In this document: piece by piece, positions 1-8,841 of the stretch
Position numbering within the stretch: the first letter of the stretch is position 1
Layout: every line of letters begins with the position of its first letter
DNA from: Kofleriaceae bacterium
GTDB lineage: Bacteria > Myxococcota_A > Polyangia > Haliangiales > Haliangiaceae
DNA: 64,000 nucleotides
Assembly (NCBI GenBank): GCA_965215005.1
Contig: CBDCCZ010000039.1
Location: 1 to 64,000, forward strand
Direction of reading: 5' to 3'
The notes under the pieces: generated by a model
What the model was told of the DNA's origin: nothing
Database searches by the model: none
The model's input: only the letters and a program-made list of their open reading frames with translations
Program-made: the position numbers and the translations under genes

Positions 1-520
1 ACAGAGGCCGTTGCCAAACTCGCGCCGCAAGCAGGCAGCAAGAGTCCATTGGGCAAAGCCGTCGTCTACTTTCAACGCCAGCTGCCAACACTCGAGGTCT
101 TTCTTACCGATGGCTCGCTGCCCATCTCCAACGCCCACGTCGAGCGCCGGCTGCGCACCGTCGGCATCTTCCGCAAAAACTGCCTCTTCGTCGGCAGCAT
201 CGAGGCAGGTCAGCGCTTCGCCATCCTCCTCTCGCTCGTTCTCCAGTGCGAGCTCGACGGCGTCAATCCCTACGACTACCTCGCCGACGTCATCGACAAA
301 GTCGCTAACGGCTGGAAGATGAGTCGCGCCCCTGAGCTCCTGCCACGCGCCTGGCTCGCCGCCCGCGAGCGCCCAGAGCAGCCCGCCGGCGATACTCTCT
401 CCTGACGTCAAAGCGTCGGCGAGTCCGTCCTCGGCGGCTCTTCCTGATTCACTCCGTTCCACCCCTACCTTTTGCCACAGCCGCACGGCCTTAGGCAGGT
501 GCGCGCTGTCGGGCGCTTAC
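1..520 (+). mobile_element. IS66-family element, right-hand part with terminal inverted repeat
   Basis: A transposase C-terminus is followed by ...GTCGGGCGCTTAC ending at 520. Its reverse complement, GTAAGCGCCCGAC, matches the GTAA(G)CG start typical of IS66 ends. Confidence 0.85.
49..405 (+). CDS. tnpC: IS66 transposase TnpC, C-terminal part (the gene starts before the window)
   Basis: Motifs PISNAHVERRLR, RKNCLFVGS and GVNPYDYLADV...ELLP are characteristic of the IS66 TnpC C-terminus. Confidence 0.9.
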   Translation: MGKAVVYFQRQLPTLEVFLTDGSLPISNAHVERRLRTVGIFRKNCLFVGSIEAGQRFAILLSLVLQCELDGVNPYDYLADVIDKVANGWKMSRAPELLPRAWLAARERPEQPAGDTLS

Positions 521-935
521 GCTGCTGCGACGAGAGGCATCTACAGCTCGTACCTATCACACCGCAGGCAACTTTTCAGCTCGCCAAGCCGGTGAAGCAA
601 TGAAGCAATCTGAGCTCGAGCCGCGCTCTTTACCCACGGCGGGCGCTTCCTGACGCCCGTTGACACACGGCAGCGTCGGCTGCTGGACAACCTGGACGTC
701 GCGCTGGAGGCGACGTCGGGAAAGCGGGCGCGCAAGGAGGTAACGCGTGAGCGCAAGCTGCAGCGGGAAGTCGCGGCGCTGGAGGCGCGAGCCCGCGGAG
801 AGAGCACGTCATCGCCGAGTGTGTCGCGTTAAAAAAGAGCTTGGGGAGTCCTGGCGGGCCAGTGGGTTCCTCATGATCTGCGTGACGAGGTCGTCAGCTT
901 CGTCGCGAGATGGTCTGAGCGCACTGCATATTTCC
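521..935 (+). pseudogene. Degenerate IS3-family orfA/orfB fragments
   Basis: Broken frames read LLRRE-IYSSYLSH and QRRLLDNLDVALE. An AAAAAAG slippery motif at 831-837 is followed by GQWVPHDLRDEVVSFVARWSERT, which resembles an IS3-family orfB start. Truncated. Confidence 0.65.
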
Positions 936-937
936 AT

Positions 938-2410
938 TCAGGGGACTAGTTCATGGACAGGTAATCCGTGAACAGTCGCCCATTCGTGAAGTGCCTCCCG
1001 CGCCTGACGAGCCGGACCTCGAACAACGATTACTGCATCCTCAATTTTCAACTCCCCTAGCGCCTCATTGACCTCCGCCGGCGACACACCATCCAAATTC
1101 TCAAGCCAACTGTAGGGCTCGAATCCTAGCCAGACGTCCTGAGCGCTCAGTGCAGTGCTCGCCATCCCCGCCGAAGTCTGCATAGACCACAGCAGAGGAA
1201 ATCGAGCTACGTGCTGCGCTCGTGCGAGTTCCCTCTCATCGATCGCCTGCCCCGCCGACATTACCTTCATTAATGCAGCTAAGCCCGGTGCCAACTGCTT
1301 CGGCGCTAGCGACACGTGAGCTGAAAACAACGCGCGTTCTTCGTTCAGTGTTGTCATTAGTGTATGGGCTGAATACGCGAGGTCATCGTCCACTGCCAGA
1401 GCCCGATTTAGCAGCGAGGCGTAGCCGGAGCCGAGCGTAGCATCCAACAACACCAGCCTCGCGAGCGCCGCAGAGTCAGCAACCTCCACCACATACCCAG
1501 CGGCCACCTCGAACTGTTCTGCATGCGGCACATCCAGCAGCAGCAGGTGGCCCGACACGCTGGCGCCGCGCTGCAGGGAGGTCTCTGGCACCGCTGGTGC
1601 ATCCATAGTCGGCGCGAACCGCGCTGCAGCACCGCTTATAGCCTCGGTGAGATCCCCCGGCCCAGCTACCGCGATCCATCGTTCAGCCGCAGCAATAAGA
1701 GCTCTCGCCTCACTTACCCGCATTCTCGCCAGAGATTTCCCTCTAGGCCATACGTCCTCACCGCGGGCCCAGAGGACCGCGTCTAGCGCGTTCGCCACCG
1801 CCCGTGGGGCATCCGCCTGCCGCTGCCGCCGCACCTCCCAAGCCTCGGCTACATCGCGGCCCTCGGCGGCCACAGCGCTCCCTCTTTGTGCGCAGCGTCT
1901 GGCGGTCTCATACAAAGTATCCGTAGCACTCGGCAACGAAGTCAACGTGGCTTGCACCAAGTTGCGCGTTCGCTCTACTTCCGCCTTCACGGGGACTCCC
2001 CGACCTTCTTTAGCAACGGCGCGAAGGCACTGCTGTAGCCGAACCGAAAGCATTTCAGCCGTCCAGCTGGCCAATCGGTGGCCACCGGGAAGTCGCCACG
2101 CCATACTCACGGAAGCCGTCGTTAGCCCCTTGCGCTGAAAGGCAACGATCCCCCCATGCGGGAGACGACGTACAACGGATTGCGGCTTCATGGGAGTGGC
2201 TGTGGTCCCATCCGGCGGCTTGGTCCGCCAATCCTGGAAGGCGAGTTCAGCGCGCCTCCCCCTCTTAGCTGAGATCTCACGCGCTGCCATGACGACAGTT
2301 GTCGGTGTCTCCACGTTATCACCGCCTCGAGTTCCTTCGCACGAGCTCACGCTAGCCAATAGCGCCAGAGCTTTCGCTATGGCGTTGTTTCGGATGACGG
2401 CAACGCCCAC
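938..2410 (-). CDS. M16 (insulinase-like) peptidase, non-catalytic partner subunit, probable lipoprotein
   Basis: M16 C-terminal-domain features (LGSGYASLLNRAL..DDLAYSA, ELARAQ), no HxxEH motif, N-terminal hydrophobic stretch ending LASVSSC. Overlaps the end of the upstream M16 gene. Confidence 0.75.
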   Translation of the reverse strand: MGVAVIRNNAIAKALALLASVSSCEGTRGGDNVETPTTVVMAAREISAKRGRRAELAFQDWRTKPPDGTTATPMKPQSVVRRLPHGGIVAFQRKGLTTASVSMAWRLPGGHRLASWTAEMLSVRLQQCLRAVAKEGRGVPVKAEVERTRNLVQATLTSLPSATDTLYETARRCAQRGSAVAAEGRDVAEAWEVRRQRQADAPRAVANALDAVLWARGEDVWPRGKSLARMRVSEARALIAAAERWIAVAGPGDLTEAISGAAARFAPTMDAPAVPETSLQRGASVSGHLLLLDVPHAEQFEVAAGYVVEVADSAALARLVLLDATLGSGYASLLNRALAVDDDLAYSAHTLMTTLNEERALFSAHVSLAPKQLAPGLAALMKVMSAGQAIDERELARAQHVARFPLLWSMQTSAGMASTALSAQDVWLGFEPYSWLENLDGVSPAEVNEALGELKIEDAVIVVRGPARQAREALHEWATVHGLPVHELVP

Positions 2411-3705
2411 ACTTTCACCGCTTTCGCATCTTCTAGCCAGTCGACCACCCGTGCCCGCGTCGATGCTTCGAGTAATGCAAGGCCACCATGTTCATCGGGA
2501 CCTGCCGTCGGAAATCGCCAGCCCCAGAACGTGCGTCGGACGACATCTTGAGCACGATCGATGACCAGCTCAAGCTTCTCCGCGCGCTCTAACGATACTC
2601 GAGCACTGGCTCCGCTATAGGTAGCGGGCTCATCTCGAAACCGAGCGAGTAATTCGGCGAAGGCTTGGACAAAAACTTTCTCCACCCTAACCTCAACCAC
2701 CTCGTCCGACGCGGCGACGTCGCACCGAAAAATACTGCCTAGGCGGCGGAGATAACTTACACATTCAACCCCCCGTGCCCATCCCTTGGGGAGTTTATCC
2801 GCAAGTGCCTCCTTCAGCCGCAAGTTGAGAAACTCTGCCAGCACCGCCAGCGCGAGTTCTTCTTCGAAGGAAGCGACCGGTTGAATCCAAGCAAACGTCA
2901 GTCGCGGCGCCGGAACATCGGCCGCCGAAACATGCGAGACTCCTGGCCTCCGTGCCGCAGAACGAGCACGTCCCTCCACATCTAAGGACCTTCGCTTTCC
3001 TGATGACGCGTCATGAAAGTACCGCGCAACTAGAGCACGGACCTCCGCAATGTCAACAGGACCCACGACGACTAGCAGCGCATTGCTTGGCGTATAGAAG
3101 CCTCTGTAAAAGCGACGCGCCTCTTGAACTGTAAAGCCTCGCAGCGTCTCTTCACGACCGATAATCCTCCCCGCATAAGGATGATCGGCGCCATAAAGCC
3201 TCTCCGCTAAGCGCCACTCCGCCGATGTGTACGGAACGCTGTCGACCGTTTGCGCCTTCTCGTGAAGTACAACCTCCAGTTGATGCGCCAACCTCGCTGC
3301 GACGAGTCCCGACTCGGCATACATCAACCTCTCTGACAACAACCAGAACGGAACGGCAAGTTGCCCAAGAGGCACCGCAAACTCGTACGACGTCCAATCA
3401 TACTTTGTAACCGCGCGCTGCCCGCCCCCAACATCCTCGATATGCCGCGTGTGCACCTGCCGATCCGCATGAAGCGTCCCCTCAAACAGAAGATGCTCAA
3501 AAAGGTGGCTAACTCCGGATTGCTGCGGCGTCTCGTGCGCTGGTCCTGCATTTACAGCTAACGTGACTGCAACCAGCGGTGCGCTGGGCTGCGGCACAAC
3601 AACGACTTGCAAGCCATTTGGCGTCGTCCACGTCTCGGCTACCTCTGCATGAACGTCGCTAGCTGACAGCATCATTATCCCGAAAACGAGCAGCACGCAT
3701 CTCAT
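2377..3705 (-). CDS. M16 (pitrilysin-family) zinc peptidase, catalytic subunit, with signal peptide
   Basis: PNGLQVVV, SGVSHLFEHLLFEGT (inverted zincin HxxEH), HPY..IIG and FYTPSNALLVVVG. Signal peptide MRCVLLVFGIMMLSASDVHA; SD-like GAGG upstream. Confidence 0.92.
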   Translation of the reverse strand: MRCVLLVFGIMMLSASDVHAEVAETWTTPNGLQVVVVPQPSAPLVAVTLAVNAGPAHETPQQSGVSHLFEHLLFEGTLHADRQVHTRHIEDVGGGQRAVTKYDWTSYEFAVPLGQLAVPFWLLSERLMYAESGLVAARLAHQLEVVLHEKAQTVDSVPYTSAEWRLAERLYGADHPYAGRIIGREETLRGFTVQEARRFYRGFYTPSNALLVVVGPVDIAEVRALVARYFHDASSGKRRSLDVEGRARSAARRPGVSHVSAADVPAPRLTFAWIQPVASFEEELALAVLAEFLNLRLKEALADKLPKGWARGVECVSYLRRLGSIFRCDVAASDEVVEVRVEKVFVQAFAELLARFRDEPATYSGASARVSLERAEKLELVIDRAQDVVRRTFWGWRFPTAGPDEHGGLALLEASTRARVVDWLEDAKAVKVWALPSSETTP

Positions 3706-3723
3706 ATCTACCTCTTCTGAGGA

Positions 3724-3927
3724 CTACTTCGGTTTCTTGTTGAAGGAGGTCATTCCTTGCCCATCATCCTCTCCGCCGCGCACCTCCTCCATAGCCGCCG
3801 TCGTTAACACGCGCACAGTGCTGACCTTCAAGGCAAGTCGTCCTTTTCCGCTAGCCAAGCCTGGCGTCGACCCAGCACCCAATCGACCCAATCCGTCCAT
3901 CGAGCGACTATTCCTGTTCCTCTTCAT
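3724..3927 (-). CDS. Small peptide with a double-glycine-type leader (putative precursor peptide)
   Basis: Strong SD TAAGGAG (3934-3940, minus strand) 6 nt before the ATG at 3927. Fills the gap between the kinase and peptidase genes. Sequence ...RLALKVSTVRVLTTAAMEEVRGG|EDDGQGMTSFNKKPK. Confidence 0.75.
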   Translation of the reverse strand: MKRNRNSRSMDGLGRLGAGSTPGLASGKGRLALKVSTVRVLTTAAMEEVRGGEDDGQGMTSFNKKPK

Positions 3928-3961
3928 CATCAACTCCTTATGTCTTGAAAGTTGCCGACCG

Positions 3962-6900
3962 TCAATGGCCGTTCACGAAGAACTTACCGAGCATATTTCG
4001 AGACCAAATTGAGAGCTCGCCTCCGACTCCAGCGCTCGCGAGCAGCTGCCCATCTGGAGAATACTCAAGTGCTCTTACCTCATCCGAGCCGGCAGGCAAG
4101 ATCGCACGTGCACCAAGGGAGGGACGGTAGAGAAAAATCTCGCCGGTGTCGAAAGCCACCGCGACCTCTTCGCCTCGCTGATCAGCAGCAAGCGATGTTG
4201 GCTTGCGCTGCCCAACCGAGACACACCGCTTAGAGAAGCGGCCTGAGAGAACACATAGAACTCCATCCTCCGCGACCCAGCTAATCAACCCGCTAACATA
4301 TACTAGCTCTCTCACTCGAGCCTCATGCCGTGCGATGACATAGCTTACCGAACGCTCAGGGTCACACAGCATTACCCGGCCGTCTGCAGTTGAGAATACC
4401 GAATAACGACTGGATAATACTGCCAACCCGAGAACACTGGTTCCATCCACGCGACATACTCCGAGTGGGGCCCCGTCGGGGCCCCATCGCTTTACGTAGC
4501 CATCAATCCCCGCTGTAAAAAGAACTGGCGATTGCTCATGACCAGCGCTCGCCACTCGGAAAATGTCGCCGTGATGGGCATTGATAGAAATCGGGACATT
4601 GGAATCATGGCCCGAAATTATGAGGTTTCCATCAGAGCCGACGCTGGCGACTACTCCGCGCGTTGTTATCAGAAAGTCCCAAATCACCCCGTTATGCTGG
4701 TGGAGTCCGACACTCGACCTGTCCGAATCCCATCTGCGCAGCGTCCCATCCCAACTCGCGGTGAAGACTTCATCCCGCCGCAATCCAAATTTCGCACCGT
4801 ACGTAAGCGCATCATGACCATCAAAGATTCTTAGCGCCTTAAGCGGCAGACCGGCAGTAGACCACAGCCGGACCGTCCGATCATATCCATCAGTCAGCAG
4901 AGAGCGCGAGTCATCGCTGAATTTCGTATTATAGACGATATTCTGCTGCGTATCTATCAGGAGCCTACGAGAATGCGGGATCTGCCAGACACGTACCTGC
5001 TGCCGACTGTCTGCTGATGCAAGCCACCTGCCGTCCGGCGAGAATGACAATTCCGCAAACATCGATCCTTCGTGCCCCCTGAGATACCAGTAGTCGTGTG
5101 TGCGCAGATCTGCCAGCCATATTAGCCCACGCTCGTCAGCGAATGCGACGAAGCGAGAGTCTGGAGAGAACGCCGCGTCCACGATCCGTGTCTCGAGAGA
5201 TCTGCGCAACTTGACTCGTTTCTCGGCAGAATCCCGGACCACCACCTTACCCAACTCGTCGCCATAAGCGACCAGTCTACCATCAGGCGCTGCAGCAACC
5301 GCGGTGACTTGGTTAGACGAGTCGTTCCAATCTTCTTTTAGGGAGCCTGATGATTCATACATTTTTACGGTCGACCCACTCGCCGCGATCACGCCCGTTC
5401 CCGTGGCAACGAGCCCCATTCCGCCCAAGTTATCACAATCTCCCAATCGCAACGATATCCGTGGAGGCAGAGGATGCGCATAGAGACCCAATTCGCTGCA
5501 CAGGTACACAGTGCCATCTTCGTCAACAGTAAGGTCTCGCGCTGATATACTAGAAATAACCTCGGCACGTAGCGCTACAGTGTCATACCGCATCACCCCG
5601 CCACCTTCGAGCTGAGCGACAGCATACCTTCCAGCAGTGCGAAGGACGCGCACAGGAGAGTAGATCGTTGATAAAACTTCATCTCTATCGCCTGGTTTAG
5701 AATAGATGCGAACGGCGCTGCGCGTCGCATAGACGAGTTGCTCTTCGGCGAACGCGGCTTGAGCGAATGGGCCCAACTGGTCTGTTACGGTGTCGAATTC
5801 GCCAGAATGGATATCCCAGAGTCGGAGTGTCCGATCGACTGAGGCAGTAGCAAGTCCGCGGGCAGAAAAACTCATGCTTAGGATTAGCGCATCGTGCCCT
5901 TCTAGGATCGTATAGGCCACTCCACGTGCATTCGCCGCGGCAGTCGTATTGAGTGCGCGCTCACGCGATGAGAGACGGGCCTCGTCCTCGAGCCATTGAA
6001 GCGCTTTCGTCGGGTCGCGCTCAAGGCTCTTCTCTGCGTGAACGAGGACGAGCTCATCGCGCTGAGCCTCAAGTTCCTGCGATGAAGCTACGGCGGCGGA
6101 GCGCTCTGCTCTGGCGAGATCCCTCTGGTCGAGCGCCGCAAACAGCCCGGCGGAGCTTGCAAGAGCGATTAGCGAGAGGCCGAGTAATCCTACCAGGGTC
6201 GTCAGCCGATTCCGCATCATCCAGCTGACGATCACCTCATTCCGGGAGTAGGAATGAACCGTTACCAATCTCCCTGAGAGAATCGCTCTGACATCCTCTG
6301 CCAAATCTTTGGCGGAGTCGTAGCGTGAGACCCTATCCTCGTTCGTCGCCTTCGAAATGATTGAATCCAAGGCGGGCGGGATCTTCTTACCATGCAAAAA
6401 GGAAGTCTTCGCCGCAGACGTTTTCTCTCGCCACTTCAGATAGTCTTCTCCGATCAAGATGTGAGCCAACGTGCAACCCAGGCCGAATACATCGGTCCGT
6501 TCGTCCGTTTCGACGCCGATAGCCTGTTCGGGCGCCATATAGGCTGGTGTTCCGATGACGGCCCCCTTGCCGGTCAGTTCTTCACTTCGACTAATCGGGC
6601 TTTTGTGCCGCCGATAGTCTCCAGTTTCGGCGGTGTGCCCCAGTTCTTTGGCCAATCCCCAATCAACAACGAATGTCTCGCCATAGTCGCCGACGACTAT
6701 GTTCCCGGGCTTGATGTCTCTGTGAATTATGCCTTCCGAGTGCGCGTATGCTATGGCGTCGGCGGCCGCTGCGATTATGGGAAGGAGCGCCATCCGGCTG
6801 GACAGGTCGGTTGAGCTTTGCAACAACTCCTTCAACGAGCGGCCTGAGATGAACTTCATCACGTAGTAGGGGATACCATCTCGCGTGCGGCCGATCTCGT

Positions 6901-7357
6901 GGATCGGAACTATCCCTCCGTGCTCAAGTCGGGCAGTTAGAGTTGCCTCGCGGAGAAATCGATGCTCGCCACGTTCACCTGGATCCAACAGTTCCTTGAT
7001 GGCGACGATTCGGTCCAAATGCTGGTCGTAGGCGCGCAGGATCCGTCCTAGGCCGCCTCTATCGTGCTCAGAGAGAATTACGTAGCGTTCAGGATAGCCG
7101 TAGACTTCCGACGGATTAGCGAGAGCCGGCCTCTCCGAGCGCTCCCGCCACCGGTGGTGAGCAGTAGAATCTCTGGTCAATGGAACAATAGACGAATCGC
7201 GCCCGAGGGAGCCCGGAATGAGAGCATTGTCCTCGGCAGTGTACGTACGGTCGACAGTAGAGCGGAGAATTGTTCCCTCAACTGCTCGGCTAGGCTTTCT
7301 CATCTCCTTATTGGGAAGGTAGTCGTCCACGGGCTCCTCGTTCGTCCGCGTCCGCAC
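3962..7357 (-). CDS. Membrane-anchored Ser/Thr protein kinase with C-terminal WD40 beta-propellers
   Basis: GGLGRI, VAIKE, HRDIKPGN, DWG, GTPAYMAPEQ; TM segment LTTLVGLLGLSLIALASSAGLFAAL; many GH...WD/W repeats (LEGHDALI...TLRLWD, LRGHEG...VRVW). Start codon uncertain. Confidence 0.93.
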   Translation of the reverse strand: MRTRTNEEPVDDYLPNKEMRKPSRAVEGTILRSTVDRTYTAEDNALIPGSLGRDSSIVPLTRDSTAHHRWRERSERPALANPSEVYGYPERYVILSEHDRGGLGRILRAYDQHLDRIVAIKELLDPGERGEHRFLREATLTARLEHGGIVPIHEIGRTRDGIPYYVMKFISGRSLKELLQSSTDLSSRMALLPIIAAAADAIAYAHSEGIIHRDIKPGNIVVGDYGETFVVDWGLAKELGHTAETGDYRRHKSPISRSEELTGKGAVIGTPAYMAPEQAIGVETDERTDVFGLGCTLAHILIGEDYLKWREKTSAAKTSFLHGKKIPPALDSIISKATNEDRVSRYDSAKDLAEDVRAILSGRLVTVHSYSRNEVIVSWMMRNRLTTLVGLLGLSLIALASSAGLFAALDQRDLARAERSAAVASSQELEAQRDELVLVHAEKSLERDPTKALQWLEDEARLSSRERALNTTAAANARGVAYTILEGHDALILSMSFSARGLATASVDRTLRLWDIHSGEFDTVTDQLGPFAQAAFAEEQLVYATRSAVRIYSKPGDRDEVLSTIYSPVRVLRTAGRYAVAQLEGGGVMRYDTVALRAEVISSISARDLTVDEDGTVYLCSELGLYAHPLPPRISLRLGDCDNLGGMGLVATGTGVIAASGSTVKMYESSGSLKEDWNDSSNQVTAVAAAPDGRLVAYGDELGKVVVRDSAEKRVKLRRSLETRIVDAAFSPDSRFVAFADERGLIWLADLRTHDYWYLRGHEGSMFAELSFSPDGRWLASADSRQQVRVWQIPHSRRLLIDTQQNIVYNTKFSDDSRSLLTDGYDRTVRLWSTAGLPLKALRIFDGHDALTYGAKFGLRRDEVFTASWDGTLRRWDSDRSSVGLHQHNGVIWDFLITTRGVVASVGSDGNLIISGHDSNVPISINAHHGDIFRVASAGHEQSPVLFTAGIDGYVKRWGPDGAPLGVCRVDGTSVLGLAVLSSRYSVFSTADGRVMLCDPERSVSYVIARHEARVRELVYVSGLISWVAEDGVLCVLSGRFSKRCVSVGQRKPTSLAADQRGEEVAVAFDTGEIFLYRPSLGARAILPAGSDEVRALEYSPDGQLLASAGVGGELSIWSRNMLGKFFVNGH

Positions 7358-7792
7358 CTAGCGGGTTCATGCGGCGAGTCCAACTTCGGCAGGGAGTACC
7401 ACAGAGAGGCGAAGATGTGTCGACTTTTCGCCGGCAACACCTGGCAAAGATTGGCAGTCTCGAAAGAACGAGTGCGTGTTGTCAAGATGGTGATATCGGT
7501 AACGAACTGCGAAAGTAGTGGAGACCACAGTCGCACGCTCGCCGCGCGCATTTGCCTCTGTTGCGCAGCAGCCTACCTGGCGGCGCATAGCGATTTCGAC
7601 GCGGGTTGAATGAGCAACTTCGAGCCGCGGCAAAAGCTGGCTGCGCTCGTCGTCGGTGCTTTTCTTGCGCCGCTGCGGGCGGCGTCGTCACGCGCTCGGT
7701 TCGAAGGCCGGGGCATCGTTTGGAGCCGGCTCGATCAAAAGGAGTGAGGGGCCGAGGTTCAGTCACACCTGGCCCTTCGTGTTTCAAGATTT

Positions 7793-8030
7793 GTTGTCAT
7801 CTCAGAGGCGAACCAGCGCAAGGCTCATCGAGTCGAGCATTCAGCTCAAGTCTTGGATGGAGACTCCGCTGGATGTGGCGGTGGTGCGTCCTGTTCGGTG
7901 CCCTAGCTGTGAGGCGGTGGGGGCGCTTTAGGAGGACGCGTGGGGCATGGTCTTCGCCGACGGCAGCAGCGCAGGCCACGGCTCCCGGGCAAGGAGCCGG
8001 TGGTCGTGGAGGACCTGGGCAGACCGCCCC
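7793..8030 (+). pseudogene. Transposon-associated Zn-ribbon ORF remnant (DUF6431-like), frameshifted
   Basis: Broken frames KSWMETPLDVAVVRPVRCPSCEA and GHGLRRRQQR.P..PGKEPVVVE resemble the CxxC...GHG.R.RQ ORFs of myxobacterial transposons. Recognised from memory only. Confidence 0.5.
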
Positions 8031-8841
8031 AACGAACCGAGTACCCAGCCATATCGCCAAGGGACGCTGAACTGTTGGCGTCGCCTCGGAGTGGCGTCAA
8101 AGGCGTGGAGCGGCACTTCTTGCCGAGTCGAACTGGGTCTGGGCCCACGGCTCCGCTTCGGCGCGTCGAGGACATGATCGACTTGGCCCAGATCCGCGCC
8201 ATGGGAAGAGCCGGCTGCCGCTACTGAGCGTGACTGAGCGCACTCAAGGGCTCGTCGGATCCGCGAGCTCGCGCGAGCCTGATGGATGGATCTCGGGACC
8301 GATCCGGATCTGAAGGAAGATGTCCAGGTGATGCTGCGCCGTCTGAAGCACCGGCGGCGCTAACTCATCCTCTTAAGTGCCATAGCTCAGCTAATCTAAT
8401 GTACGACGCGCACTGGTCACGGGTTGTGGGGTCCGACCGCGTCGCGCTCGCCGTTCTCCAGTGTGAGACAGCGACTCGCGAGGCGTTGCGTCAGTGGCGG
8501 CACGCTTTAGATCTTTCGATGCGCAACCATCGGATTCTCGCGCCCGCCGCGCTCGTCACTCGTAATCTCGCTGCGCTTGCGTGCCTGCGGCGCCTCCGAC
8601 ATCGACCGGAGCTGGTCCGGGATTCGCCGCTGACTCGCAAGCGACTGTTAGAGCTCAGTGTCTCGCGTCGGTCTTGACTGGTAGGTGAATCCTCGGCTCG
8701 CAAATGGGGGGCTGGCTGCGGCGGAGACATGAACAGGCGTGCGGGGGCGGCGGCGTGGACGCGGTGGGGCTGCGCGGCGGCGTTCGCTTGGGTTGCTCGG
8801 CGGGGTTGCGCGGCGGGCCGCGAGAGGCTACCAGATGCATC

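Follow-up and report, generated by a model that had tools for sequence, protein, structure and literature searches.

A receptor-like kinase gene paired with a Gly-Gly leader peptide in low-GC cassettes of a Kofleriaceae bacterium

A cassette of four genes near a contig end

The window analysed here is a stretch of 64,000 nucleotides from a Kofleriaceae bacterium (assembly GCA_965215005.1, contig CBDCCZ010000039.1, positions 1 to 64,000). Close to its start, the open reading frame (ORF) list and Pfam place four genes on the minus strand, encoding in order of transcription a receptor-like kinase with WD40 repeats, a small peptide with a Gly-Gly (GG) leader and two M16-type proteins. The unit that recurs elsewhere is the pair of a kinase-transmembrane (TM)-WD40 gene and a GG leader peptide gene at its 3' end, and the M16 pair is one filling of a variable slot. 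Kinase and peptide genes are separated by 28–34 bp, depending on the start codon, and peptide and first M16 gene by 18 bp, and the two M16 genes overlap by 34 bp. An earlier note on this DNA had described four co-oriented, tightly packed genes, as these coordinates bear out; the 18-bp gap and the overlap are operon-like, and the four genes presumably share one transcript. The GC content of the cassette is 0.577 against 0.650 for the genome, where just 4 of 936 windows of equal size are as low, and the lowest-GC 1-kb bins of the window are those at 3001–7000, in agreement with the earlier description of the cassette as AT-rich relative to its surroundings.

The first gene (3962..7357, minus strand) encodes a Hanks-type Ser/Thr receptor-like kinase of 1131 aa (1122 aa in the database call), as judged from Pfam, alignment and a structural model. 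The protein consists of a kinase domain, one predicted TM helix, a coiled stalk and about 15 WD40 blades. In the kinase domain (aa 100–341; 6335..7060; PF00069, E 5e-31), residues K121, E137, H212-R213-D214, K216, N219, D232 and P276-E277 are conserved in a 70-row alignment, so that the VAIK, αC Glu, HRD, DxG and APE elements of Hanks-type kinases are all present, together with a single TM segment by hydropathy. This segment (aa 388–406; 6140..6196) is the sole hydrophobic peak, with a Kyte–Doolittle value of 2.1, and lies between kinase domain and WD40 repeats, where the earlier note had placed it. The WD40 ectodomain (aa ~483–1129; 3971..5911) was detected with Pfam and is predicted to face outward, into the periplasm. 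An AlphaFold2 model (mean pLDDT 80.8, pTM 0.60) contains a kinase fold, a long helix at 372–447, a low-confidence TM stretch and about 60 strands, a count that suggests two propellers. No close orthologue of the ectodomain was found among the listed matches (23–39% identity, from 2821 matches). Class III/IV lanthipeptide synthetases and TOMM kinases were considered and rejected, since they match the kinase domain alone, far under their cut-offs, and the C-terminal part is WD40. Neither HisKA nor a response regulator was detected among the ORFs of the cassette with Pfam.

The peptide gene (3724..3927, minus strand) encodes 67 aa from its second ATG, 6 nt ahead of which stands AGGAG; earlier starts at 3930 or 3933 give 68–69 aa. 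Double-glycine leaders end in GG and have hydrophobic residues at positions -4, -7, -12 and -15. The window peptide has V-4, M-7, L-12 and V-15 before a G-G that is invariant in alignments, and the GG-type leader that the earlier note had read in this small ORF is therefore well founded. The leader motif, LxLxVx5L ... M-7, V-4, GG, lies at 3772..3837, and the residues after it would, on cleavage, form a mature core of 15 aa without Cys (EDDGQGMTSFNKKPK; 3727..3771). The leader is common to hundreds of peptides in genomes of the family. For the peptide as a whole, no Pfam or NCBIfam family scored over its cut-off, a search for direct homologues returned two matches only, both repeat-protein noise, and comparison with the Atlas gave leads under 0.9, one of which, at 0.80, points to a cluster of class I lanthipeptide leaders. 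Class I lanthipeptide precursors are indeed similar in leader spacing and GG end, and the accessible text of PMC7268733 ties the LxLxKx5L + GG spacing, which the window leader resembles, to C39 processing. However, the window peptide adjoins a receptor kinase and a hydrolase instead of LanB/LanC, neither of which is encoded in the cassette, and does not match NF038153, whose cut-off is passed by one of ten related peptides; with no Cys in its core, it is no lanthipeptide.

Recurrence of the kinase–peptide pair

The genome itself (G000) contains four low-GC (0.56–0.60) cassettes composed of a kinase/WD40 gene, a leader peptide and a hydrolase: that of the window and those on contigs C48, C24 and C4. 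On C48, the kinase-WD40 gene overlaps the gene for a 52-aa GG peptide (core of 15 aa, 0 Cys), which is followed by an erythromycin-esterase-like protein (PF05139), and a divergent FHA-sigma54 activator gene lies upstream. C24 keeps this gene order, PF05139 hydrolase included, with an insertion sequence (IS) within the start of the peptide gene and the activator in two pieces. On C4, a WD40 remnant beside IS66 precedes a GG peptide and an S41 peptidase. Each of the hydrolases has a signal-like N-terminal stretch. Of 10 WD40 ORFs, 4 are followed by a leader peptide no further than 2 kb beyond their 3' end, against none of the 122 non-WD40 kinase ORFs, and four of the five leader peptides found in the genome sit behind WD40 ORFs; three of the four cassette peptides were seeds of the leader profile. 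That island genes came together by chance, and that the small ORF is no gene, is hardly credible: the peptide's want of a direct homologue would fit, yet the 4/10 against 0/122 control, the ribosome-binding site, the conserved leader and the recurrence in many genomes described below all contradict it.

The kinase type is present in 120 of 147 genomes of the order at E ≤ 1e-75, a tally that counts the unpublished G067 and G068. Among 60 of the top-listed matches, chosen for full-length frames, six loci bear a leader peptide at the kinase 3' end, where 0.02 would be expected from the family-wide density. The peptide is on the same strand in four (L054, L061, L077 and L089) and convergent in two (L099 and L104), and none was found elsewhere in the 60 kinase regions. 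The earlier note had proposed looking for a small GG-encoding ORF between homologous kinase and M16 genes; the peptide was found at some homologous kinases, with no second M16 pair behind it in the loci examined. In a quick tree of the 60 kinases, 45 form one conserved peptide-free clade, and the six with a peptide are among the other 15, on long branches. The peptide label changes 6 times on this tree against a shuffled mean of 13.8, and a single origin of the link would be compatible with it.

Searches that start from the peptide led to the same type of neighbour. The leader profile has 443 matches in 63 of 138 family genomes (G067 included), and 60 regions were taken from 150 listed matches, leaving out the seeds and preferring longer contigs. 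In 16 of these the peptide touches a WD40-ended gene, and in 15 cases it is the 3' end that is touched, at a distance of up to 510 bp. The kinase search had already listed a kinase on the contigs of two of these 16 loci (one, L184, was known beforehand), and without both the count is 14/58. The gene is cut by the end of the region or contig in L139, L147 and L164, and kinase and WD40 are in separate frames in L151, L169 and L188. Six further loci touch other kinases, three of which are double-kinase-TM-TPR proteins. The kinase partners accordingly comprise plain kinase-WD40, kinase-nSTAND1-WD40, a subfamily at 20% identity and double-kinase-TPR proteins, and the peptide is convergent at the sensor-coding 3' end in L165 and L180, as in L099 and L104. 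In each of the 21 WD40-type partners that were checked, a hydrophobic segment lies 733–807 aa from the C-terminus (Kyte–Doolittle 1.7–2.8).

DNA pattern scans for the leader, which are blind to kinases, extended the pairing. Of the 80 long-flanked GTDB loci, 70 encode a short leader peptide. In 5 the peptide is next to a WD40-ended gene, no more than 450 bp away (L201, L227, L230, L254 and one repeat of an earlier locus, in records titled Kofleriaceae, Polyangia and Thermoanaerobaculia); 2 loci are near a kinase-TPR gene and 14 near LanB. Of 39 further loci with 300-bp flanks, one touches a WD40-ended gene. In 68 mostly short metagenome contigs, five have a WD40 3' end upstream of the peptide and one has activator, peptide and kinase-WD40 genes in a row. 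The leader profile found nothing at E ≤ 1e-5 outside the bacterium's own genome in 200 genomes drawn across the phylum. With the DNA pattern, leaders of this type were detected in records of Acidobacteriota and of Actinomycetota. The Acidobacteriota peptides are for the most part rich in Cys and unlinked, which suggests that the kinase link is concentrated in Kofleriaceae-like myxobacteria.

Aligned across the family, leaders are conserved and cores hypervariable. Most kinase-linked cores outside the window contain 2 Cys plus Ser/Thr. Their median length is 25 aa (n = 16) against 34.5 aa for LanB-linked cores (n = 12), and neither Cys count (p 0.19) nor Ser/Thr fraction (p 0.56) separates the two groups.

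Several other peptide loci deserve mention. Cys-free cores of Ser/Gly/Thr/Ile repeats follow the same leader in L140, L155, L157, L183, L190 and L195, one of them beside an ATP-grasp gene, and many Cys-rich leader peptides occur in Thermoanaerobaculia records of the GTDB pattern set (L203–L278), where a small query set retrieved no modifying enzyme within 3.5 kb. In L147 (3076-5967), three Cys-ending peptides behind the WD40 gene are followed by a flavoprotein, near LanC, possibly an AviCys-type ribosomally synthesised and post-translationally modified peptide (RiPP). A protein of ~290–310 aa recurs beside leader peptides and LanB genes (L089:7756-8625, L163:3382-4305, L185, L191 and L197), with no Pfam match at E ≤ 1e-6 in the two tested. 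Within G000, C19:93898-101528 (L013) holds a low-GC kinase-WD40 gene split by IS66 and then a weak metzincin-like exported protein, with no clear GG peptide between them, and at C23:76215-76451 (L322) a leader peptide stands alone in a short patch of low GC, away from any kinase. A different peptide type, of 40 aa with GG and a 6-residue core, is convergent with a 1574-aa kinase-AAA-TPR gene at C23:32952-33089 (L323). C18:238433-251080 (L324) is possibly a RiPP cluster, containing an FHA/sigma54-like gene, a C39 transporter, a 1234-aa kinase, a 71-aa GG peptide with a Pro-rich core and a JmjC/cupin gene.

The hydrolase slot, the activator and the exporter

The first M16 gene (2377..3705, minus strand) encodes an M16B-type catalytic subunit of 442 aa (Pfam M16 and M16_C) in which HLFEH at 67–71 and E149 are intact. 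Its closest solved relatives are 4nnz and 3amj, and in 41 related genomes its matches are generic, with best identities of 30–38%. The partner (938..2410, minus strand; 490 aa, 32 aa shorter in the database gene call) was recognized with PF05193 (M16_C; E 1.6e-5). It has no HxxEH, no homologue at E ≤ 1e-10 among 8000 scored candidates and no solved relative, and its Atlas features are at 0.94 to M16 clusters, which is a lead. An HxxEH subunit with a distal Glu, encoded beside a motif-less partner, is the arrangement of two-subunit M16B peptidases such as that of PDB 3amj (active subunit), PqqF and mitochondrial processing peptidase (MPP). M16B partner subunits carry an Arg/Tyr pair; inspected by eye, the window partner has a Tyr in the expected stretch and no Arg at the usual place. 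Unlike known M16B pairs, both window subunits look exported and the partner is very divergent. PqqF/PqqG identity was rejected, with 56.7 bits against the TIGR02110 cut-off of 320. Regarding the export signals that the earlier note had assigned to both peptidases, judged here by eye and hydropathy, the catalytic subunit has a signal-like N-terminal stretch; the partner is lipobox-like by eye and shows no hydropathy peak over 1.6.

The earlier note had treated the M16 pair as a set part of a four-gene system, and this was not borne out. No second kinase–peptide–M16-pair locus was found among the 60 kinase, 60 peptide, 80 GTDB pattern and 68 metagenome loci, and other hydrolases take the slot in the paralogous cassettes. 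In these sets, M16 turned up in one kinase locus that has no peptide (L097) and right after the peptide in one locus where no kinase adjoins it (L170). A hydrolase does lie 3' of the peptide in all four cassettes of the genome, from three unrelated families, and also directly behind the peptide in three kinase-less loci (M16 in L170, M36 in L140 and an erythromycin-esterase-like protein in L179). Outside this genome, only 2 of 22 kinase–peptide loci have one after the peptide (two M1 in L077, an erythromycin-esterase-like protein in L184). Given these counts, the slot is real but accessory. Erythromycin-esterase-like proteins fill it at C48, C24, L184 and L179. It is unlikely, though the lack of a second M16-pair locus and the few filled slots elsewhere would agree with it, that the pair of kinase and peptide is real and the M16 genes simply travel with the low-GC island and do not act on the peptide. 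Another M16 pair, at G000:C61:5199-8020, is also of low GC (0.559) and signal-like at its N-termini; it has no kinase or leader peptide upstream and fits that explanation too. The 18-bp gap and the overlap, which suggest one operon, the occupied slot in four of four cassettes and the hydrolases behind kinase-less leader peptides speak against it.

The earlier note had overlooked that paralogous cassettes are flanked by an FHA-sigma54 activator gene and that a C39 exporter has to be supplied in trans. Of the 6 peptide-bearing kinase loci, 3 have a divergent FHA-sigma54 gene beside them, against 1 of the other 54 (Fisher p 0.002, from kin that are not independent). No such activator is encoded among the ORFs of the window. 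At the corresponding position, 7558..8363 (unstranded), there are degenerate repeated pieces with three matches of 143–190 bp at 78–86% elsewhere in the genome. On the other side, downstream, is an IS66 end (1..522, plus strand; transposase 3' part at 49-405; PF03050 and PF13817) with 10 further near-full copies in the genome at 95–98% identity. The proposed bracketing of the cassette by IS debris hence stands for the downstream side; upstream there are merely the three short repeats. Six clusters of GTTAC/GTAAC words exist in the genome, four of which flank the two activator genes, on either side, together with GTTAC-N-GTAAC palindromes (G000:C48:9310 and 11065; C24:8253 and 10077). These clusters are candidate activator sites, and there being none in the window hints at loss of the activator from the window copy. 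No match to a strict sigma54 promoter pattern was obtained across the first 9 kb of the window, nor at the C48 and C24 loci.

As for export, the cassette has no C39 transporter; two strong PF03412 (C39) genes are found elsewhere in the genome, one apparently frameshifted. A C39 transporter is present in 16 of 18 genomes with kinase–peptide pairs and 9 of 18 without leader matches (p 0.027; kinship and size are confounders); the two genomes with pairs and no C39 match are 87% and 99% complete. A single LanB and a single LanC are encoded in the genome on separate contigs, both away from the cassette. The LanB lies with HlyD and C39, with no LanC or precursor beside it (G000:C4:23731-32074), and the LanC is at C12:28847-30157; they are possibly trans-acting machinery.

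Ligand of the receptor or product of its regulation

With slightly better than even confidence, we favour the view that the cassette is a private signalling channel, in which the receptor kinase encoded next to it senses an exported peptide and the hydrolase clears this peptide. The core is read as the ligand of its neighbour because the peptide keeps to the sensor-coding end in either orientation and across unlike kinases that share the TM-repeat part, and because cores vary where leaders hold. A C39 transporter encoded elsewhere would cleave the precursor at Gly-Gly and export it, and the resulting core of 15 residues would bind to the WD40 domain, predicted to be periplasmic, of the adjoining kinase; if secretion carried the core beyond the outer membrane, it would have to come back in to meet this sensor. 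FHA domains bind phospho-Thr. Once activated, the kinase may promote phosphorylation-dependent docking of the FHA-sigma54 protein, the likely output, which for the window would act in trans. The likely exported M16 pair would destroy the core, the hydrolase being a likely eraser by analogy with PrgY/TraB of enterococcal plasmids, a peptidase thought, according to the accessible part of PMC7117660, to degrade the cell's own peptide signal. The likeness to PrgY is one of analogy only, and the window uses M16.

The earlier note had offered two readings, a ligand–receptor pair or phosphorylation of the core by the kinase. Recurrence makes the kinase–peptide link strong, and ligand and receptor is the better of the two. 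For the kinase to phosphorylate the precursor core in the cytoplasm, giving a modified RiPP from which the M16 pair removes the leader, seems improbable. M16 enzymes such as PqqF/G and MPP do process peptide precursors; PqqF is among the solved relatives of the window M16, the kinase motifs are intact and the core contains Thr-Ser. However, the peptides go with several kinase subfamilies and architectures that have just the membrane segment and the C-terminal repeat domain in common, class III/IV synthetase and TOMM kinase scores are far under their cut-offs, the M16 pair is not conserved beside the peptide, and a GG leader already implies a C39 cutter.

The main rival, which we regard as rather doubtful, is that the peptide is a regulated product: the kinase would sense a prey, competitor or envelope cue and, via FHA-sigma54, turn on a secreted bacteriocin-like or RiPP peptide that the hydrolase matures or from which it protects the producer. 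The same leader is found on LanB-linked precursors at 13 of the 60 peptide-first loci, and 38 of the 60 touch no kinase, which makes it a general RiPP export tag. Two kinase–peptide loci also hold LanC (L151, with LanB, and L147, with a flavoprotein), their kinase genes heading lanthipeptide genes, and a regulator of a peptide product fits them equally with a receptor for the peptide. The 2 Cys plus Ser/Thr of most kinase-linked cores and the unlinked LanB and LanC of the genome itself also agree with a product, and an erythromycin-esterase homologue occurs in RiPP loci as a possible modifier or resistance factor, according to the accessible text of PMC8939145. What a regulated product does not need is a peptide gene at the sensor-coding 3' end in either orientation, an arrangement that keeps sensor and peptide together in transfer. 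The Cys-free, 15-aa cores of the window and C48 and the shorter length of kinase-linked than of LanB-linked cores also argue against a product. Several of these observations count against the signalling channel that we favour, namely the 38 leader loci with no kinase, the 13 near LanB and the LanC-containing loci. So do the 54 of 60 related kinases without a peptide, the absence of activator and C39 genes from the window cassette, the two genomes with pairs and no C39 match and the few hydrolases outside the genome. In addition, the leader profile was trained on kinase-linked peptides and favours them in the peptide-first test.

Among the known systems that come closest are the Gly-Gly pheromone circuits ComC/ComAB/ComD-ComE and BlpC/BlpH and the lantibiotic autoinduction system of nisin, NisK/NisR. 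The former likewise have a GG peptide gene beside a membrane sensor kinase gene, C39 export and a variable core behind a conserved leader. Here, in contrast, the sensor is a Hanks-type Ser/Thr kinase with a WD40 (or TPR) ectodomain, the output is likely FHA-sigma54 instead of a response regulator, the host is a diderm with many paralogous channels per genome, and the transporter is unlinked; with no histidine kinase, the cassette falls outside the ComC/ComD-type pheromone family. With nisin it shares a membrane kinase beside a peptide precursor, and L151 and L147 also hold LanC/LanB-type genes, whereas the window has a Cys-free core, no modifying enzyme in cis and another kinase class. The Pkinase-TM-WD40 architecture, with kinase predicted inside and WD40 predicted periplasmic, is described for Planctomycetota and myxobacteria in PMC11032199, the accessible part of which mentions neither a ligand nor an adjacent peptide gene; the kinase gene studied here comes with a candidate ligand gene. 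No title or abstract in the searched literature described a kinase–GG peptide pairing (subscription papers and supplements lay outside the search, and a published mention is possible), nor do the accessible parts of PMC2875238 and PMC5587647 mention one.

Receptor-like Ser/Thr kinases number in the tens to hundreds in myxobacteria and planctomycetes, and for most of them no signal has been named (PMC11032199, accessible text); the cassette is likely part of an undescribed set of signal, receptor and eraser for this class. The genome itself proposes a candidate ligand for several such kinases, a peptide of 15–40 residues that can be synthesised, with the paralogous cassettes supplying non-cognate controls. 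To our knowledge, WD40 receptor kinases have not been known to sense ribosomal peptides. If the core is the ligand, bacterial WD40 receptor kinases would for the first time have peptide ligands assigned on genetic grounds, and these would represent a peptide quorum or kin signal in a diderm, multicellular-type lineage. Peptidase roles would also be suggested for erythromycin-esterase-like proteins, a family with which Tiki-type enzymes are proposed to share their mechanism (PMC6254334, accessible text). More broadly, and held tentatively at somewhat less than even confidence, Kofleriaceae-like myxobacteria may possess polymorphic, mobile peptide hormone channels in the style of plant peptides and receptor kinases, each combining a hypervariable GG peptide with a WD40 receptor kinase of its own and an exported protease that erases the signal and can be exchanged, and many having FHA-sigma54 as output.

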